Source: an uncultured archaeon (GTDB lineage Archaea; Nanobdellota; Nanobdellia; Pacearchaeales; GW2011-AR1). From it: 64,000 nt of DNA. The position numbers and the translations under genes were made by a program. The notes under the pieces are model-generated. The model was not told where the DNA came from, ran no database searches, and saw only the letters and a list, made by a program, of their open reading frames with translations. The DNA lies in contig CABMGN010000002.1 in assembly GCA_902385635.1 (NCBI GenBank), forward strand, positions 18,092 to 82,091, in the 5' to 3' direction. Below are positions 7,520 to 47,790 of this stretch, one piece after another; position 1 is the stretch's first letter; every line of letters starts with the position of its first letter.

Positions 7520-8358
7520 GAATAGGATCTCTTAAGCTAAAAAATAGAATCTTCTTGGCTCCAATGGAGGAGATTAACGATCCCGCGTTTAGAATGCTTT
7601 GTAAGAAAGCCGGAGCGGGGTTGACTTATACTGGATTGTCAAGTCCGTTGAACCCGAAAGAGTTAACTTTAGACGATAAACCCGCTTTGCAAATTTTCTG
7701 TACTTCTGAAAAAGGAGTTAAGGATTTTATTAAAAAGTATGATAAGAAAGTTAGTTTGTGGGACTTTAATCTTGGTTGTCCTTCTAAGTTAGCAAAGAAA
7801 CATGGCTTTGGGGTATTTATGCATGAGGATTTAGAATCAATCGAACAAATTTTAAAAGTGATGAAAGAGTCAACTAAGAAACCTGTTACAATTAAGATAA
7901 GAAAATCTCCTAAAACTCTTGAGATAATTAAGATTGCAGAAAAGTATTGCGACGCAATCGGAATTCATCCTAGAACACAGGCTCAGGGTTACTCTGGAAA
8001 GCCTGATTTAGATTTTTCTCTGAAAGTTAAAGAGATGACAAGGTTACCAGTCATTTACTCTGGAGATGTCAATGAAAAGAACTACAGAGAACTTTTGAGA
8101 AAGTTTGATTTTGTTATGGTTGGAAGAGCGGCAATTGGGAGACCAAACATTTTTGTAAAGATGACTGGTAAAAAGATGAGAGATATTACTTTCAAGAATT
8201 ACCTAAAATTAGCCGAGAAGTATAAACTTTACTTCAGGCAGATTAAGTTTCAGGCAATGAATTTCACAAAAGATCAGAAAGATGCAAAGAAACTGAGATT
8301 GAAGATTTTTGAAGCGAAAAGCTTAGAGGAACTGAAAAAGATACTCCTTTTGAGTTAA
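7516..8358 (+). CDS. dus: tRNA-dihydrouridine synthase-like flavoprotein
   Basis: FLAPMEEINDPAFRMLCKKAGAG matches the Dus N-terminal signature, followed by a TIM-barrel-like remainder. It overlaps the preceding gene by ATGA. Confidence 0.7.
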   Translation: MRIGSLKLKNRIFLAPMEEINDPAFRMLCKKAGAGLTYTGLSSPLNPKELTLDDKPALQIFCTSEKGVKDFIKKYDKKVSLWDFNLGCPSKLAKKHGFGVFMHEDLESIEQILKVMKESTKKPVTIKIRKSPKTLEIIKIAEKYCDAIGIHPRTQAQGYSGKPDLDFSLKVKEMTRLPVIYSGDVNEKNYRELLRKFDFVMVGRAAIGRPNIFVKMTGKKMRDITFKNYLKLAEKYKLYFRQIKFQAMNFTKDQKDAKKLRLKIFEAKSLEELKKILLLS

Positions 8359-8400
8359 TATAAAGGAAAAATTTAAAAAGTTCTTTCTTGAGTCCTTTTA

Positions 8401-8706
8401 ATGGGTCAATTCACTTTTAATCGAGTAGTTGGTATTGTTCATACTCTGGCAAGTGACCCTGCTCTTTCGGTAGATAATCTTCTAGAGAAACTTTGTGCGG
8501 GAACCGGTTTCTCTCCAAAAGATCTATTGGGAAGAAGTAAGTCACAAAGTGTCGCTTCTTTAAGACAAGGAGCTTACTATCTTTTACATGAAAAGCTTGG
8601 ATTGAGCCATCCCGAAACTGCTAGATTTATGGGTAGAAAAGACCATACAACTTCTTTGTACGGTGTTAGAAAAATTAGTGGCGGTCTTGAAGCTTATGCT
8701 CATTAA
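8401..8706 (+). CDS. stand-alone bacterial DnaA domain IV (Bac_DnaA_C helix-turn-helix) protein
   Basis: LLGRSKSQSVASLRQGAYYLLHEKLGLSHPETARFMGRKDHTTSLYGVRKI matches the DnaA C-terminal signature (RSRSVARPRQ.AMYL...LPEIG..FGGRDHTTV.HA.RKI). There is no AAA+ domain. Confidence 0.7.
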   Translation: MGQFTFNRVVGIVHTLASDPALSVDNLLEKLCAGTGFSPKDLLGRSKSQSVASLRQGAYYLLHEKLGLSHPETARFMGRKDHTTSLYGVRKISGGLEAYAH

Positions 8707-8743
8707 AGGTAGTTTTTTAAAGGATACTCCTAGTTGAAGGTTT

Positions 8744-9097
8744 ATGTTAGACAATAAGTATATTGGAGTTTATCACGTTACTGTTGATCCCAAAGGAAGA
8801 ATAAACTTACCTAAAAAATTTAGACGGAACGGAGTTAATATTTATTATTCACGCCCATCTCCTTCTGTTAAGGGGTTTCTTCTTTATCCAGAACCTACTT
8901 TTGAGGAAATAGTTGAAGGATTGGAGAATCTCCCAGAAGATGATCCTATCCGAGTAAGCTTTGCTGAATCCCGAGAAATTAAGGTAGATTCGGCAAGTAG
9001 GATGAATATAGCTAGATTGGACTTAGGAGACCGGGTGACTATGCTTGGAAATCTTAACTGTCTAATTTTAAGAAAAGCTGAGAAAAAGAAAGAATGA
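8744..9097 (+). CDS. mraZ: MraZ-family (tandem AbrB/SpoVT-like) DNA-binding protein
   Basis: First repeat is VDPKGRINLPKKFR (the DxKGRxxxP motif). The linker LLYPEPTFEEIVEGL resembles E. coli MraZ LLLYPLPEWEII. The second repeat is VDSASRMNIARLDLGDRVTMLGN. Confidence 0.7.
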   Translation: MLDNKYIGVYHVTVDPKGRINLPKKFRRNGVNIYYSRPSPSVKGFLLYPEPTFEEIVEGLENLPEDDPIRVSFAESREIKVDSASRMNIARLDLGDRVTMLGNLNCLILRKAEKKKE

Positions 9098-9600
9098 TGG
9101 TCAAACCATATTTTCCGAATCGTGGTCTGGAATGTTACAACTCAGCACTAGCTAACCTCCTTTTAGAATTTGGAGATAGAACAACTGCAGAATTAGTCTT
9201 TAATAACTATAGAAATCATCGGTTGGTTTCTAGAGATGGGACTTTACATTCAGGTTTACTTACGAGAGTTCTCTCAGAATTAACTAATGAAAGATATTTT
9301 GGAATCTTACATACTAATTTTGAGGATTTAATTGGAAATACTCAAAAATTATTTGGGAAGAGTAGAGCAGAAGAAATACTAAGAATAATCGCAGAAGAAA
9401 GTGCTGAAGGGAGAATTAAAGGTCATAACGGAAGTCTTAATTATCTTCCTCCCGCAATAATCTTAGCCGAGGGTAATAAGTGGGGTCATGCTTGTGTTGA
9501 TATCGGGGATGGAACTTTGGTCAACAATGGGGAAAAAATTATTTGTTCAGTGGAATCTTTACGGATAATTGGGCTTTTAGAAGTTAAAAGAGATAATTAA
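9094..9600 (+). CDS. hypothetical protein, possible papain-like (C39/BtrH-like) cysteine peptidase fold
   Basis: It overlaps mraZ by ATGA. An N-terminal GLECYNSALANLL and a distal NKWGHACVD give Cys...His spacing like papain-fold peptidases. The function is inference only. Confidence 0.4.
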   Translation: MMVKPYFPNRGLECYNSALANLLLEFGDRTTAELVFNNYRNHRLVSRDGTLHSGLLTRVLSELTNERYFGILHTNFEDLIGNTQKLFGKSRAEEILRIIAEESAEGRIKGHNGSLNYLPPAIILAEGNKWGHACVDIGDGTLVNNGEKIICSVESLRIIGLLEVKRDN

Positions 9601-14485: not shown

Positions 14486-16714
14486 TTATATTCTCTTTCT
14501 TTTCATCAAAAGAGTATTTAATACGACACTTACCGAGGACATAGCCATTGCTCCTCCGGCAATGATCGGTGACAGAAGCCATCCTGTAGAAGAGTAAAGA
14601 ACTCCCGCGGCTATTGGAACTCCAAGTGAGTTATAGAAAAGTGCCCAAAACATATTTTGTTTTATTTTGTTTATTGTTATTTTACTTAGTTTTATAGCTT
14701 TGACAACATCGAGAGTTGAATTATTCATTAGGACAATATTTCCTGTTTCCATTGCAACATCTGTTCCCGAACCAATTGCAATACCTATATCTGCTTGGGC
14801 AAGAGCGGGAGCATCATTAATTCCATCTCCAACCATGGCGACTTTTCCTTTCTTTTGCAATTTTTTAACTTCTTTTGCTTTGTCCTGCGGAAGAACTTCG
14901 GAGATTATGTGATTAACTCCTAATTGCTTTGCAATTGCATTAGCTGTTCTTTTATTATCTCCAGTAATCATGTAAACGAAAATTCCTTGTTCTTGTAGAG
15001 CCTTTACAGCTTTAACAGAATCTGCTCTTGGAGTGTCTGCAATTCCAACAAATCCAACAATTTTTTTATCTAAAATTCCGACAATAACTGTTTTTCCATC
15101 TGCTTCGAGACTGGATATCTGGGGGTCATACTCGTGTATTTTTCCAAATTTCTTAAGATACTCAGGCTTTCCTACGATTAATCTCTTTCTTTTGAAGTCT
15201 CCTTCTACTCCGTGTCCAGGGATTGCTTTGAATTTTGTTATTTTCTCTAGAGAAATATGGCTTTCCTTTGCTTTGTTAACTATTGCCTGGGCTAGAGGGT
15301 GTTCTGAATGTTGTTCTATACTAGCAAATATTTTTAGTAATTCTTTCTCACTAAACTTATTTAGAGAAACTATGTCTGTGACTTTTGGTTTACCCTCTGT
15401 AAGTGTCCCTGTTTTATCAAATACAACAGCGTAAAGTTTATGTGCTGTTTCTAGCGCATCTCCTCCTTTGATGAGTATTCCTTTTTCTGCTCCTTTACCT
15501 GTACCAACCATGATTGCTGTAGGTGTTGCGAGACCAAGAGCACACGGACAAGCAATAACTAGTACTGAAACTGCAATAATGAGAGAGAATTCAAATGTTT
15601 GACCTACGGCCCAGTACCATATAGAGAAGGATAAAATAGCTATTAGAATAATCGCTGGAACAAAATAAGCTGAGATTTTATCAGCAAATCTTTGTATTGG
15701 TGCTTTTTTCCCTTGCGCATCTTCAATTAGCTTAACTATTTGGGCGAGAGTAGTATTTGCTCCAACTTTTGTTGCTTTGAATTTTATAGTCCCGTTTTTG
15801 TTTATTGTTGCACCTATAACAAGATCTCCTTTTCCTTTTTCAACAGGCATACTTTCTCCGGTAATCATACTTTCATCTATAGCTGATTCTCCTTCTGTGA
15901 TTATCCCGTCTACCGGAACCTTCTCTCCGGGCTTTACAATAATAATATCTCCAACAATAACCTCATCTACTTTTATTTTCATCTCTTTCCCTTTTCGTAT
16001 AACTGTTGCAATTTTAGGAGAGAGACTCATTAATTTCTGAATTGCTTCACTTGTTTTTCCTTTTGCGGAAGCTTCAAGGTACCTACCTAGCATTACAAAA
16101 GTAATCAATACCGCAGCTGCTTCAAAGTATTGATCTCCCATTGGATTAAAGAAGACAACATACAAACTGTAAAAGTAAGCTGCACTTGTTCCTAGGGCAA
16201 TAAGAGTATCCATGTTCGCTGTTTTATTTTTTAGAGCGCCCCAAGCACTCTTGTAAATTCCGGTGCCGATAATAAATTGGACAGGTGTTGCCAGTGCTAG
16301 AAGAATATAATTTCTGTACGGGATTTCAATCCCAAGCCACATAAAGACCATTCCTATCAAAAATGCTGGAATTGCAAATATTAAGCTATAAAAGAATAAG
16401 TTTTTTTGTTTTTTCAAATATCTTTCTCTCTTCTTTTTTTCAAAATCTGCTTGATCATACTCATCATTATGCCCCTCATGAACCATTTTCATCTTTCTAT
16501 GCTCGGGGTTCTCTGCAGTATAACCTAAACTTTTTATTATACTAATTATCTTTGGTTCATCTATAACTCTTTCATCAAATTCTACTGTTGCTTTTTCTGT
16601 ATTAAGATTAACACTTGCATATTTTATGCCTGGTTGTTTAGTCAAGGATTTATCTAGTAAAGTTACACAGCTTTGACAGTGCATTCCAGTAATTTCGAGA
16701 TTGATTTTTTTCAT
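14486..16714 (-). CDS. copA: copper-translocating P1B-type ATPase
   Basis: N-terminal HMA motif GMHCQSC, CPC motif in [11 protein letters not shown], phosphorylation site DKTGTLT, and GDGINDAP. Confidence 0.95.
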
Positions 16715-16908
16715 TTCACCTTATAACCTGAATTTTCAATTACCCCTTTGATTTGTTTTTCTGAGATTATTTTTTCATCAAACTCTATTTTAGCTATCCC
16801 TTTCTTATAATCAATTAATATTTTATTTACTTTTCCTTCTAGTTCCATTTTAATTATTTTTGCGCAACTTTCACAGTGCATGCCTTCTATTTGGAATATT
16901 TTTTCCAT
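16711..16908 (-). CDS. copZ: copper chaperone, HMA domain
   Basis: [18 protein letters not shown]. The start was moved to ATG 16908, just after the stop of the upstream gene. Its TGA stop overlaps the copA ATG. Confidence 0.85.
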
Positions 16909-16910
16909 TT

Positions 16911-18371
16911 TTACATTCCACACCCGCATCCGCCACCATTTGCACCCATACTACAACTTGAACCTGCTTTTGGTGTTGATGCTTTCACTTGACTCTGAGT
17001 TGCAGTTCCATCCGTAGTAACAATGAAACTTCCCCTTAACATTCCCATTCCACAGCTAAACGGAAGAGTGCCTTCTTTATCTGGAGTAAATTCTATTACA
17101 TTTAATCCTTCTTTTAGAGATTTGTCAATTCCGTACTGCTGTAATATTAGTTCCTGGTTACAACTAGTTAGCTGTTTTACATTTACATTCCAGACTACCG
17201 GTATTCCTTCTTTGAGCACAAATGAATTAGGAGAGTAGCCCGAGGCAGATACATCCATGTTTATTACCTGCTTTCCATCTACTAATACTATACTATCACT
17301 TCCGTTTACTATCTTTACACCAGAATTTGTTATTTGTGATTTTATTGAATCAAAATTGTAATTACTTCCTAAAAGAGTCAAGCCCCTATTTAGCATAACT
17401 AAACCAAGGATTAGAACAATTATTGCGGAAATTTTTAATATTTTCTTTGTTGTTGAGTGACTTATTACTGTAGCTAGACTTCCAAATCCAAGCATTACTG
17501 GAAGAGTTCCTAATCCAAATACAAAAAGGCTTATTGCACCTGTTGCAATATTTCCTGTTCCTGCTGCATAAAGATACATTGCTTGTAAAGGTCCGCAAGC
17601 GATGAATAACCCATTTAACAAACCTGTAACTAGAGGTCTTGAGTACGGTCCTTTGTATTTACTTGAAGTGTTTGTAGAAGCTCGCATTAAGAATTTTGGA
17701 TTAAACTGGAATTTTCTAAAGAACTTTATTCCAAACATACTAAAAGCATAAGTTATCATGAAGACTCCTGCTAAAATTGCAATCCAGCCTCTTAGCCCTG
17801 CTGAAAACGCAAAGAAGCCTCCGATTAAACCGAAAACCCCACCGATAATTGTGTAAGAAATAACCTTACTTCCCCCATAAATTGCGTGTTGTGTGAAACT
17901 CTTATGTCCGTCTAGGGCGTTTTTAGCAGTGTACGAAACTACAAATCCTCCACACATGGAAACGCAGTGAAAGCCTGTTAACAATCCTGCTGCGAACAAA
18001 AGAATTAATGAAGCATTATCTCCAAACTGGGGAATAGAAATTTCTGGAAGAGTAAAACCACTTTTGCTTAGAGTAATATATAGAATAACTAGGAGTAATA
18101 AAACAGCTGCACTTAGAATAAACCAACCAGTCTTAGATTTTTTTGATTCTTCTTTTTTGAGGTTACTTTTCTCATTTAGAGAATACCCCTCTTTTTCTAG
18201 CTCTTTTTTTATTTCTTCTTCTGTTATTTTTGTTTCATCAAAATCTATTTCTGCTGTTTCTTTTGAGTAATTTACAGAAATACTATTAACTTTGTCTTTT
18301 AGTTTTGTTTCTATAAGATGCGCACAAGAGTTACAATGCATTCCTTTTACTAAGTAATTTTTCTTTACCAT
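16911..18371 (-). CDS. HMA domain / DsbD_2-type membrane domain / cupredoxin-like domain fusion with Cys-Gly tail
   Basis: N-terminal GMHCNSC. The TM core has GFHCVSMCGG. The C-terminal domain has SCNQELI...FSCGMGMLRGSFIV (cupredoxin_1-like). The tail is GSSCSMGANGGGCGCGM. Confidence 0.7.
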   Translation of the reverse strand: MVKKNYLVKGMHCNSCAHLIETKLKDKVNSISVNYSKETAEIDFDETKITEEEIKKELEKEGYSLNEKSNLKKEESKKSKTGWFILSAAVLLLLVILYITLSKSGFTLPEISIPQFGDNASLILLFAAGLLTGFHCVSMCGGFVVSYTAKNALDGHKSFTQHAIYGGSKVISYTIIGGVFGLIGGFFAFSAGLRGWIAILAGVFMITYAFSMFGIKFFRKFQFNPKFLMRASTNTSSKYKGPYSRPLVTGLLNGLFIACGPLQAMYLYAAGTGNIATGAISLFVFGLGTLPVMLGFGSLATVISHSTTKKILKISAIIVLILGLVMLNRGLTLLGSNYNFDSIKSQITNSGVKIVNGSDSIVLVDGKQVINMDVSASGYSPNSFVLKEGIPVVWNVNVKQLTSCNQELILQQYGIDKSLKEGLNVIEFTPDKEGTLPFSCGMGMLRGSFIVTTDGTATQSQVKASTPKAGSSCSMGANGGGCGCGM

Positions 18372-30506: not shown

Positions 30507-31115
30507 ATGTTCTATCTAACAGAAGTTGAAGACTATGTACGAGTAGAGCCTAAATTATTTGGGCTTCCTACTGCAGAGGCTGTCGATAAACAGTTAAGAG
30601 AGACATACGCTAATTTTTACAGTAAGGAACTTGGAAAGGTTGTTGCTGTTGTAGATGTTAGTTCTGTTGGAGAGGGTGTTTTAATTCCGGGAGACGGAGC
30701 AGCGTACTACAAATCTGTTTTTACTTTAGTTGCTTGGAAACCAGAATTACAGGAAATTGTATATGGAAAAATCTCTGAAATAACTAATTTTGGAGCGTTC
30801 ATCGAGATGGGGTCGATGAGAGGAATGATTCATATTTCACAAACAATGGAAGATTACGTCTCTTTTAGTAAGGAGAATGTTCTTTCAGGAAAAGCCTCTA
30901 AGAGAACTCTTAAGGAGGGTGACTTGTGTATTGCACGAGTTGTTGCAATCTCTTATAAGGGCGAGGAACCAAAAATAGGGTTAACTATGAGGCAACCGGG
31001 TCTTGGGAAAATAGAGTGGATTAAAGAGGATTATTCAAGAAAGGATAAAGAAGCTGCTAAGGCTGCAAAAGATTCTGAAAAAGTAGAGAAAGGAAAAAAG
31101 GAGAAGAAGAAATAA
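30507..31115 (+). CDS. rpoE: DNA-directed RNA polymerase subunit E' (Rpo7) with S1 domain
   Basis: MFYLTEVEDYVRVEPKLFG...GDGAAYYKSVFTLVAWKPE...GAFIEMGSMRGMIHISQ...LTMRQPGLGKIEWI aligns closely with archaeal RpoE1. Confidence 0.85.
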   Translation: MFYLTEVEDYVRVEPKLFGLPTAEAVDKQLRETYANFYSKELGKVVAVVDVSSVGEGVLIPGDGAAYYKSVFTLVAWKPELQEIVYGKISEITNFGAFIEMGSMRGMIHISQTMEDYVSFSKENVLSGKASKRTLKEGDLCIARVVAISYKGEEPKIGLTMRQPGLGKIEWIKEDYSRKDKEAAKAAKDSEKVEKGKKEKKK

Positions 31116-44688: not shown

Positions 44689-44709
44689 TTGTTTTTTCCT
44701 AGAGCATAT

Positions 44710-46188
44710 ATGAAAAAGAGTGTGAAGAAAACTGTTCCTAAATCTAATTATCATGCTCTTTTGAAAACACTAAATCCACATCAGCAAGCGTATATTAGTC
44801 TTGATTTGGAAGGTGCAAAAAATGGAGAATATATGTTATGTGTTTTTCATATGGTTCCGAGAAAGGGGCTTAATTCTCTACAAGCTGCGTGTGAAGTTGC
44901 TGCAGAGTCTTCTACAGGAACAAATTTCTTAGTTAAGACAGAAACACCCTTCTCTAAAAAGATGAATGCTCTTGTTTACAAACTTGATCTTCAAAAAAGT
45001 CTTGTTTGGATTGCTTACCCTTGGAGATTATTTGACCGCGGAGGGAATATTCAGAATATTTTAACTTACATTGTCGGAAATGTTTTAGGAATGAAAGAGG
45101 TTTCTGAGTTAAAACTTCTTGATGTCTGGTTTCCTCCAACAATGATTGAACAGTATGATGGTCCAAATTACACTTTAGATGATATGAGAAAGTACTTGGG
45201 GGTTTACAAAAGACCAATTCTTGGGACAATAATCAAACCAAAAATGGGCTTGACTTCTTCGGAATATGCTGAAGTTTGTTATGACTTCTGGGTTGGGGGC
45301 GGAGACTTTGTAAAGAACGACGAACCTCAAGCTAATCAAGATTTTTGTCCGTATGATAAAATGGTTAAGTATGTTAAAGAAGCAATGGACCGAGCGGTTA
45401 AAGAAACTGGAAAGAAGAAGGTTCACTCCTTTAATGTTTCTGCCTCAGATTATGAGACAATGATTCAGAGATGTGAGATGATTAAGAACGCAGGTTTTGA
45501 AAAGGGTAGTTATGCTTTTCTTATTGACGGCATTACTGCGGGGTGGATGGCTGTTCAAACTTTGAGAAGGAAGTATCCCGATGTTTTCATACACTTTCAC
45601 AGAGCAAGTCACGGGGCATATACAAGAAAAGAAAACCCTATTGGCTTTTCTGTTTTAGTTCTGTCTAAGTTCGCACGATTAGCTGGGGCTTCTGGAATTC
45701 ACACAGGAACTGCCGGAGTTGGAAAAATGGCTGGAAGTCCGGAAGAAGATATTATTGCAGCTAAAAACATTTTACAATTTGTTGCAAAGGGTCACTTTTT
45801 TGACCAGTCTTGGGGGAGGATACCTGGGAGAGATAAGGATGCAATAAAGATAGTTCACGAAGATCACGCTCATCACGTAATCTTAGAACATGATAGTTGG
45901 AGGGGAGTAAAGAAGTGCTGTCCGATAATTTCTGGGGGGTTAAACCCAACTTTGTTGAAACCATTTATTGATGTCATGGGAGGTGTTGATTTTATTACAA
46001 CCATGGGCGCAGGTTGTCATGCTCACCCGAAAGGAACACAGGCTGGAGCAAGGGCTTTAGTTCAGGCATGTGAAGCTTACCAGAAGAAAATTGACATTCA
46101 CAAGTATGCAAAGACCCATAAAGAGTTAGCCGAAGCTATTGAATTCTTTGAGAAAAAAGGAACAGAGAGAAAAGTTGAGAGTGCTTGA
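44710..46188 (+). CDS. rbcL: ribulose-1,5-bisphosphate carboxylase large subunit, archaeal form III / II-III-like
   Basis: GTIIKPKMGL, GGGDFVKNDEPQ (carbamylated Lys), HFHRASHGAY, GIHTGTAGVGKMAG (loop 6 Lys), PIISGGLNP and GAGCHAHP. ATG 44710 is preferred over the track TTG at 44689. Confidence 0.9.
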   Translation: MKKSVKKTVPKSNYHALLKTLNPHQQAYISLDLEGAKNGEYMLCVFHMVPRKGLNSLQAACEVAAESSTGTNFLVKTETPFSKKMNALVYKLDLQKSLVWIAYPWRLFDRGGNIQNILTYIVGNVLGMKEVSELKLLDVWFPPTMIEQYDGPNYTLDDMRKYLGVYKRPILGTIIKPKMGLTSSEYAEVCYDFWVGGGDFVKNDEPQANQDFCPYDKMVKYVKEAMDRAVKETGKKKVHSFNVSASDYETMIQRCEMIKNAGFEKGSYAFLIDGITAGWMAVQTLRRKYPDVFIHFHRASHGAYTRKENPIGFSVLVLSKFARLAGASGIHTGTAGVGKMAGSPEEDIIAAKNILQFVAKGHFFDQSWGRIPGRDKDAIKIVHEDHAHHVILEHDSWRGVKKCCPIISGGLNPTLLKPFIDVMGGVDFITTMGAGCHAHPKGTQAGARALVQACEAYQKKIDIHKYAKTHKELAEAIEFFEKKGTERKVESA

Positions 46189-46242
46189 AGCCGTATCAAA
46201 CATTTTTTAAACATCATTCTCCTCTATATTTTAATAAAAAAG

Positions 46243-47790
46243 ATGGCAGCAACTGTAGATCAACTTATTGGTAAAATTAATCCAAAACTCTATGCAGAAA
46301 ATGGAGCAGAGCTCTTGAAGAAGTATGGCAGCTGGGATAAGATTCCGGCTGAAGAAGTAGTACCTAAACCTGCTTCGGAACATAAGCTAACTTACGACTC
46401 TTCTGCAGATCAGTTAGAGCCAATTTACTTCTATATTTTAGATATGATGAATGATCGTGCAATGAAACCTGAGAAGCTAGTTGATAATTTTTCTTCATCA
46501 CCCGGATCAGGACATTTTGGAGAGATGGGGCAGAGAATGTCTGTAATGCAACAACAAGGTGTTAAAATTTTAGGGGATATAAATAATGTCTTAAGAAGTG
46601 TTTTAAATATAATTTATGACTTAAAGGATTTCAGAACAAGACTACAAGTTTACAAGGATTCAAAAGATAAAGATCCTGCTAGAGCCGAAGCAGCAAGACT
46701 ATCTCTAAAACAAATTTGGTTAGATAAAGTAGATATTAATAAGGGGGTTCAGGGAAATTCTAGTATTAAAGCCATGGCTCTTTCACAAGCAGGGTTTGTT
46801 ACTCTTCTCGACGCATTTTTGGCTGTAAAGGATGAAAAAGAAGTCGCTAAAATGGATCTAAACGAGAGAGTAAAAAGAATTGTTGAACAGAGAATCCAAG
46901 AATTTAATGTCTGGGTTATACAGTCTGAAATGGAATTAAATAAAAGATATGAGATAGAAAAAACTTATTTGAAAAGTCAGGTAAATAGTCTAAAGATTTA
47001 TGCGCAATGGGCAAAGCCTTACCTAGTTGCAGCACAGCAGTTACAGATGACTGATATGTCAAAGAATCCTTCTTTAGTAAAAGCATTCAATACTATCCTT
47101 CTTCAATTAACATTAATTGGAAGTAATAAAGTAGATGTTGCAGACGAAGTTATTGCAAATAATTTCCCTACTGAATTAAAAGGTATGAAGATAAAAAGAG
47201 ATTATTTTGCTTGTACGCTTATTGACTTCTCATTCCGAGGGATTCCCCAGAGAGCCTCTGCAACACAATCACATTATGTTTTCGGGGGACTTTCAGAAGT
47301 TACATTTAGAGCTTATGCTTTGAATGCTGACGAGAAAAAAGCATTAAGCAAAGAAGTTGAAACTTCGTTGGTTAGTGATGTTCTGAAACTAATTGAAGGA
47401 GCAACAACAGAAAGTTTAGCAAATTTAAAAGATGAGATCGAATATTATCTAGAAGAAAAGCCCAAAGAAGAAAAAAAGGAAGAGAAAAGTAGTTCTTCTG
47501 GAGGCAAAGGATTTGGAGGAGTAATTGCTGACTTATTTTATCCCTTTGCAGCGATGTCTGGAAGGTACGATAAAGAAGGAAGTGCGGATACTTTCTCAGA
47601 TAAAAAAAGTGGAGATAAGAAAAAAGAAGATAAGTCAATTAGATCTGATGATTATATTGAAAAAACCTTTTTGAGAAAATTTGCTGAAGACAAAGCAAAA
47701 ACAACAACCTTTGATCTATTTGAAATCTACAAAAAGACTCACGGAATGGCAAGTTTCCCTCTTAATATGAATAAGAACGATCTTAGCTAA
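46243..47790 (+). CDS. hypothetical 515-aa protein, helical, with Lys/Glu/Ser/Gly low-complexity region near the C-terminus
   Basis: Long ORF 54 nt after rbcL. It has predicted long helices (VLRSVLNIIYDLKDFRTRLQVY; SEMELNKRYEIEKTYLKSQVNSLKIYAQW). No family recognised. Confidence 0.6.
   Translation: MAATVDQLIGKINPKLYAENGAELLKKYGSWDKIPAEEVVPKPASEHKLTYDSSADQLEPIYFYILDMMNDRAMKPEKLVDNFSSSPGSGHFGEMGQRMSVMQQQGVKILGDINNVLRSVLNIIYDLKDFRTRLQVYKDSKDKDPARAEAARLSLKQIWLDKVDINKGVQGNSSIKAMALSQAGFVTLLDAFLAVKDEKEVAKMDLNERVKRIVEQRIQEFNVWVIQSEMELNKRYEIEKTYLKSQVNSLKIYAQWAKPYLVAAQQLQMTDMSKNPSLVKAFNTILLQLTLIGSNKVDVADEVIANNFPTELKGMKIKRDYFACTLIDFSFRGIPQRASATQSHYVFGGLSEVTFRAYALNADEKKALSKEVETSLVSDVLKLIEGATTESLANLKDEIEYYLEEKPKEEKKEEKSSSSGGKGFGGVIADLFYPFAAMSGRYDKEGSADTFSDKKSGDKKKEDKSIRSDDYIEKTFLRKFAEDKAKTTTFDLFEIYKKTHGMASFPLNMNKNDLS

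Follow-up and report, generated by a model that had tools for sequence, protein, structure and literature searches.

Why do two DNA-binding modules of the bacterial cell cycle lie side by side in an archaeal genome, and do they form a system with the gene that follows them? The question is raised by three plus-strand open reading frames (ORFs) in a 64-kb stretch of DNA (hereafter the window), part of a 147-kb contig that NCBI labels "uncultured archaeon." A sequence-only reading had described these ORFs, whose products we call P1, P2, and P3, as a bacterial-type cassette resembling an antitoxin–toxin or mobile-element regulatory module. Their coordinates were found to be exact, as were the 37-nt spacer between P1 and P2 and the ATGA stop/start overlap at the P2/P3 junction:

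8401..8706, + strand: P1, DnaA domain IV on its own, with its helix-turn-helix and basic loop, 101 aa, VVB79147.1

8744..9097, + strand: P2, a compact MraZ-like protein with two SpoVT/AbrB-type repeats, 117 aa, VVB79149.1

9094..9600, + strand: P3, a papain-like Cys-His-Asn protein (Cys14, His132, Asn144), 168 aa, VVB79151.1

NCBI labels these proteins "DnaA," "MraZ," and "Uncharacterised protein," respectively, and places the P3 start at the second ATG (9097), which gives 167 aa.

The explanation that we favor, with moderate confidence in it as a whole, is that the trio is a lineage-specific neighborhood in a DPANN-type archaeon and not a dedicated three-part system. According to this explanation, P1, freed from the initiator, would serve as a small sequence-specific DNA-binding protein (a transcription factor or nucleoid-site binder) via its helix-turn-helix and basic loop. 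P2 would oligomerize and bind direct repeats, by analogy with bacterial MraZ, and would control its own promoter and hence P3, which would be co-transcribed with it and translationally coupled to it. P1 and P2 would have come from bacterial families via old horizontal transfer. P3, judging from its structure model, would be a cytoplasmic papain-like cysteine hydrolase (of the peptidase, amidase, or acyl-transferase type) from a family that occurs widely among DPANN archaea and is normally encoded on its own.

P1 proved to be DnaA domain IV and nothing else, in agreement with the sequence-only reading. The Pfam profile Bac_DnaA_C (PF08299) matched it with 53.1 bits (cut-off 31.5) over profile positions 2–69 of 69, and the DnaA equivalog model TIGR00362 gave 46.8 bits against a cut-off of 343.9, aligning over model positions 343–418 only. 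The AAA+ module is absent from this 101-aa protein, and the gene upstream is Dus. Alignment with E. coli DnaA domain IV (PDB 1J1V; Fujikawa et al. 2003) was gap-free. The DHTT motif, the Lys/Arg residues of the basic loop, R55, Q56, P71, and R90-K91 are kept in P1, and the equivalent of H439 is Tyr (Y87). The DnaA-box contacts in 1J1V, which we take to be R399, R407, Q408, P423, D433-H434-T435-T436, H439, and R442-K443, correspond to K47, R55, Q56, P71, D81-H82-T83-T84, Y87, and R90-K91 of P1. On this sequence comparison, P1 is probably a complete, DNA-binding domain IV. A lone DnaA-box–like 9-mer, TTATCCAGA (one mismatch), lies at window positions 8884–8892, inside the P2 coding sequence.

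The archaeal setting of the trio was borne out by an RpoE′/Rpb7 gene (SHS2_Rpb7-N plus S1) at 30507–31115, by TrmB, and by the NCBI label of the contig. Such a host presumably uses Orc1/Cdc6 for replication, unlike the bacteria that use DnaA. P1 cannot be a replication initiator, because it lacks the AAA+ domains, its host is an archaeon, and DnaA boxes do not cluster nearby. In phage and plasmid collections, it matched only complete DnaA proteins and "DnaA-like domain" proteins of phages, with 32–37% identity. Bac_DnaA_C also occurs as the C-terminal helix-turn-helix of some TnpA_REP/TIRYT transposases (PMC6006769), so detached uses of DnaA domain IV are not unprecedented. Word-based homologue searches with P1, P2, and P3 each returned self matches only, and a search of the literature on stand-alone DnaA domain IV or archaeal MraZ yielded nothing specific.

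The assignment of P2 to MraZ was likewise upheld. Pfam MraZ (PF02381) matched P2 with 31.6 bits (cut-off 23), the scored stretch covering only residues 8–28, and TIGR00242 aligned with residues 6–91 (E 5.8e-9), its 36 bits lying below the equivalog cut-off of 98.35. All four of the best PDB sequence matches were MraZ proteins (E 0.08–0.2), and pairwise BLASTP with E. coli MraZ (from NC_000913) aligned residues 8–105 of P2 with residues 4–115 (E 4e-10). The two MraZ repeats that had been proposed were recognized by their DxxxR motifs, D15–R19 and D82–R86, which align with those of E. coli and Mycoplasma MraZ. BLASTP of one half of P2 against the other gave no match, as is usual for such diverged repeats. 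The single-sequence AlphaFold model of P2 had a predicted local distance difference test score (pLDDT) of 35 and is unusable for judging either the MraZ fold or a ring-shaped oligomer.

P3 had no sequence match in Pfam, NCBIfam, PHROG, PADLOC, or the PDB. A phmmer scan of 1.84 billion representatives nevertheless retrieved 111 homologous clusters at E ≤ 1e-3 (43 at E ≤ 1e-10); the homologues are mostly 160–200 aa long, and the closest is 48% identical to P3. In an alignment of 75 family sequences, C14 (72/75), N21 (72), D28 (68), A32 (74), Y68 (74), H132 (72/75), and G146 (74/75) were conserved, and position 144 was D in 45 sequences and N in 22, the window protein having N. None of the 75 sequences had a convincing Pfam match (only one touched C39_2, with E 0.051), and the family profile found no peptidase in the PDB.

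The AlphaFold model of P3 built with the 75-sequence alignment had a pLDDT of 95.6 and a predicted template modeling score of 0.91. In this model, Cys14 starts a helix (residues 14–25), His132 starts a strand (residues 132–138), and residue 144 ends a strand (residues 141–144); as modeled, this placement is the papain arrangement. Papain-like C39 peptidases have an oxyanion-hole Gln where the P3 family keeps Asn9, which is a possible oxyanion-hole residue. In a Foldseek search of the PDB, the top match was to PCAT1, in its C39 peptidase domain (probability 0.92, TM-score 0.52, E 0.1), and the recognizable matches after it were MepS/NlpC-P60, papain-like protease (PLpro), ubiquitin-specific protease (USP), and Ufm1-specific protease (UfSP). 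In BFVD, the matches were papain-like proteases (PLPs) of a torovirus, enterovirus G, and coronaviruses, together with CHAP and NlpC/P60 proteins, the best being the torovirus PLP (E 1.6e-3). The Foldseek E-values are weak (none below 1e-3), yet the matches are consistently papain-like. The description of P3 as a papain-fold C39/BtrH-like protein thus stands at the level of the fold and the Cys-His triad, but does not extend to sequence membership in Peptidase_C39, C39_2, or BtrH_N.

If the trio were a recurring module, relatives of P1 and P2 should accompany P3 homologues elsewhere. We gathered P3 contexts by exact-protein look-ups, by a degenerate DNA pattern run over GTDB genomes, and by the same pattern run over Joint Genome Institute (JGI) metagenomes, and confirmed the hits with a family hidden Markov model (HMM). 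The pattern represents the N-terminal motif of P3 and, when applied to protein sequences, matches 28 of the 115 in the family, so that the context survey is a sample. The P3-family hits in named genomes were archaeal in six of six cases (two Woesearchaeota metagenome-assembled genomes (MAGs), archaeon UBA583, one uncultured archaeon, and two MAGs labeled Methanosarcinales). Ten bacterial loci picked up by the pattern were rejected as chance matches with no homologue inside, and on IMG/VR contigs the pattern found no true homologue. The notion of a bacterial-type cassette therefore holds for P1 and P2, which belong to bacterial families, and fails for P3, which belongs to an unannotated archaeal family of at least 111 clusters.

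Among about 13 distinct contexts of P3 homologues, phmmer with P1 and P2 and small DnaA-IV and MraZ HMMs detected no relative of either protein, so the gene-neighborhood survey does not bear out the trio as a recurring module. A DNA pattern running from DnaA-IV (HTT...KI) to MraZ (D.KGR...P) also found nothing in JGI metagenomes and IMG/VR; this pattern was narrow, with a fixed CAT codon for His and a 30-nt gap range. The neighbors of P3 homologues were instead diverse:

L001 and L023: a divergent methyltransferase gene and a convergent HNH/zinc-ribbon gene

L008 and L032: KsgA and a tandem second copy

L019: MetRS and TrpRS

L016: DUF2283

L011: an overlapping ORF of 643 aa

L021: the P3 domain as the C-terminal domain of an 816-aa fusion protein

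The P3 homologues of L001 and L023 are 48% and 42% identical to the window P3, and the zinc-ribbon plus HNH-like gene that converges on them from just downstream (L001 3655–4134, L023 1510–2028) is the only recurring neighbor that we saw. In L008 (1376–2437) and L032 (3786–4847; archaeon UBA583 / AYRE01000013), the P3-family gene is present as two diverged copies in tandem, beside a divergent KsgA/RsmA methyltransferase gene. The large proteins to which the P3 domain is fused in L021 (1971–4418) or whose end it overlaps in L011 (4084–6640) have, outside that domain, no Pfam or NCBIfam match, and they are unrelated to each other. In L016 (3784–4262), overlapping ORFs of 94 aa (Pfam DUF2283) and 80 aa lie upstream of the P3 homologue on the same strand and may be a small toxin–antitoxin–like pair unrelated to the trio. 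In L034 (578–1057), the gene immediately preceding a truncated P3 homologue, in the same orientation, encodes a protein of 160 aa whose N-terminal domain is of the MazE/AbrB type (Pfam 25.5 bits), and in L023 a 57-aa AbrB gene lies about 700 nt from the P3 homologue. An AbrB-type gene directly upstream of a P3-family member was thus seen only in the window and in L034, among about 14 contexts.

We also examined how the three genes might be expressed. In a listing of the 60 nt before 67 window genes, in which hexamers were counted by eye, about 24 of the 67 had TTTAAA, TTTATA, or TATAAA about 22–31 nt upstream of the start codon (hexamer end to start). The presence of such hexamers without a Shine–Dalgarno sequence indicates predominantly leaderless transcripts in this organism. 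Two elements of this kind were located at the trio:

8372..8377, + strand: a TTTAAA hexamer at −29 to −24 from the P1 start, predicted from its position to be a promoter giving a leaderless mRNA

8713..8721, + strand: a T6 run after the P1 stop codon with an overlapping TTTAAA (8716–8721) at −28 to −23 from the P2 start, possibly a terminator and/or the promoter of P2–P3

P3 overlaps P2 and has no TATA-like hexamer at the usual position. Because TATA hexamers precede P1 and P2 and not P3, two transcription units are predicted, and a layout with P1 alone and P2–P3 together appears likeliest. A scan for sigma-70 promoters and intrinsic terminators stayed at chance level, these models not applying to archaea. 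The 12-mer AARGATACTCCT (AA[A/G]GATACTCCT) occurs exactly twice in the window, at 8337–8348, some 53 nt before the start codon of P1, and at 8720–8731, immediately after the TATA hexamer of P2. This repeated 12-mer could be an operator, but a repeat this long is also expected by chance in the region, for which 15 similar families were reported.

These data bear on the strongest alternative, namely that P2 and P3 are a type II toxin–antitoxin–like pair in which the MraZ-like P2 neutralizes and autoregulates a papain-like toxin and P1 is an extra regulator. The gene for the small DNA-binding protein comes first and that for the enzyme second, with an ATGA overlap between them; Pfam calls MraZ "putative antitoxin-like"; and the MazE/AbrB gene of L034 and the AbrB gene of L023 fit such a pairing. 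Against this, most P3 homologues stand alone, in tandem, or in a fusion, without a small upstream partner (L001, L005, L008, L011, L016, L019, L021, L026, and L028), and what lies upstream of the closest homologue, with 48% identity, is a divergent methyltransferase gene. Of the 47 same-strand junctions in the window, 7 have an ATGA overlap, MtaB/Dus among them, so the P2/P3 overlap is not special. PADLOC gave no match for P1, P2, or P3, and since AbrB genes are very common in archaea, two to three AbrB neighbors in about 14 contexts are a weak signal. To our knowledge, MraZ proteins are not established antitoxins. We therefore consider the antitoxin–toxin module suggested by the sequence-only reading to be poorly supported, and a P2–P3 pair of this type to be unlikely.

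We next weighed whether P1, and possibly P2, are functionless relics, that is, fragments of transferred bacterial genes that are open by chance or were left so only recently. This would be in keeping with P1 representing just the final one of the four DnaA domains, with the lack of detectable close homologues of either protein, and with P2 scoring below the NCBIfam equivalog cut-off and missing the C-terminal tail of MraZ. Nevertheless, both ORFs are intact, P1 keeping DHTT, the basic loop, and the R/Q pair and P2 both DxxxR motifs, and both are preceded by genome-typical TATA boxes. DPANN genomes are compact, and the window is densely coded. The composition of the two genes, described below, is ameliorated, which points to long residence, and unselected ORFs rarely survive this. 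Taken together, these features make a relic status quite unlikely.

The sequence-only reading had also attributed non-local amino-acid usage to all three ORFs. This was not reproduced: their amino-acid chi-square values were 21.7–35.1, compared with a local 36 ± 17, and their G+C content at third codon positions (GC3) was 0.216–0.263, compared with a local 0.263 ± 0.041. The sole outlier in composition within the trio was P1, which is low in K+I+E+N by 2.4 standard deviations, and GC was flat across the window. If P1 and P2 are bacterial in origin, their transfer must be old, because their composition is now native (ameliorated). The trio is packed between housekeeping genes, with spacers of 42 nt and 2 nt: it is preceded on its own strand by the genes for ArgRS, an MtaB-like radical-SAM enzyme, and Dus, and followed by those for TrmB and IleRS, which are convergent with it. 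No integrase, adjacent tRNA, or significant flanking direct or inverted repeats were detected at the trio; the three proteins had no match in PHROG or PADLOC; and no paralogue of any of them was found within the window.

These observations are difficult to reconcile with the trio having been left behind by, or carried in with, an integrated plasmid or virus, whose control genes would encode an AbrB-type regulator and a DnaA-like protein binding an origin or regulatory sites. Such an origin would accord with the stand-alone or short DnaA-like domain proteins of Rhizobium and Synechococcus phages (32–34% identity), with the Bac_DnaA_C domain of the transposases mentioned above, and with P1 and P2 being singletons without close relatives. 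The native GC, GC3, and amino-acid usage, the tight housekeeping flanks, the lack of integrase, tRNA, and repeats, and the lack of PHROG matches argue against it, as do the absence of any phage or plasmid match to P2 and of a true P3 homologue in IMG/VR. We thus regard the mobile-element regulatory module that had been proposed as improbable. Most improbable of all, in our judgment, is that either P1 and P2 were captured together and are used by an episymbiotic DPANN archaeon to read or interfere with bacterial cell-cycle sites (DnaA boxes and dcw promoters), or P2–P3 founds an AbrB/MraZ-controlled papain-like toxin or defense module in archaea.

Several results weigh against our preferred explanation of a lineage-specific neighborhood with P1 and P2 as DNA-binding regulators. 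DnaA boxes (TTATCCACA, at most one mismatch) are not enriched in the window, with 11 found and 16.8 expected, and a direct-repeat operator of P2 could not be demonstrated. The nearest relatives of P1 and P2 in our searches are generic bacterial DnaA and MraZ proteins. L034, as the sole other case of an AbrB-fold gene preceding a P3-family member, hints at a looser AbrB–P3 link. Finally, the adjacency of two bacterial cell-cycle DNA-binding proteins in an archaeon is left as a coincidence without explanation.

If the lineage-specific neighborhood is the right explanation, the locus is a small case of domain exaptation after inter-domain transfer, in which DNA-binding modules of the bacterial cell cycle, DnaA domain IV and MraZ, were stripped of their partners and yet kept in an archaeon. 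The automatic label "Chromosomal replication initiator protein DnaA" on VVB79147.1 is wrong in function. The more durable result, and the most tangible novelty, is the P3 family, which is papain-like with a Cys-His-Asp/Asn triad, carries no annotation, and comprises at least 111 clusters. Its structure model is very confident, and we encountered the family here only in archaeal MAGs, mostly of DPANN.

The window also encodes ArgRS, IleRS, HisRS, and a form II/III-type RuBisCO. At 44689–47790, the RuBisCO gene, for which PRK13475 was the best NCBIfam match with 637 bits and the type III model TIGR03326 gave a further match below its cut-off, is followed by the gene for a 515-aa protein without an NCBIfam match. 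The two genes may belong to the pathway of nucleotide salvage that is typical of DPANN and candidate phyla radiation (CPR) genomes. At 14486–18371, the gene for a CopA-like copper P-type ATPase adjoins that for a 486-aa protein composed of a CopZ-like metal-binding domain and a DsbD-like membrane part.

How, then, does the trio compare with known systems? Compared with domain IV of E. coli DnaA (residues 374–467, 1J1V), P1 includes everything from helix 1 through the RKI in the recognition region, but its last C-terminal helix is shortened, with only nine residues after "KI," and domains I–III, including the AAA+ ATPase, are missing. P2 resembles bacterial MraZ in being built of two SpoVT/AbrB-type halves in tandem, with a DxxxR motif in each half, and in being encoded by the leading gene of a small pair on one strand. 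It differs from E. coli MraZ in its length (117 aa versus about 150) and in lacking the C-terminal tail of about 35 aa. Unlike mraZ of the dcw cluster, its gene does not precede rsmH or fts genes but the gene for the papain-like P3, and no RsmH homologue was found within the window. P2 also resembles the first component of AbrB/MazE type II modules in that a small AbrB-fold DNA-binding protein is encoded upstream of a larger enzyme, with a 4-nt gene overlap; P3, in contrast, is not a known toxin family, and its homologues are mostly without such a partner. Unlike the C39 domain of PCAT1 (PDB 8VP5/7T55/6V9Z), P3 is a stand-alone and cytoplasmic protein, with an ABC transporter gene adjacent in none of the contexts, and it carries a long inserted helix (residues 76–104) that distinguishes it from C39 peptidases. 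Its modeled fold order and triad placement are nevertheless those of the PCAT1 domain and of the wider papain-like clan CA (NlpC/P60 MepS, the coronavirus and torovirus PLpro, USP, and UfSP): the Cys lies at the N terminus of helix 1, the His at the start of a β-strand, and the Asp/Asn 12 residues further on, in the neighboring strand.

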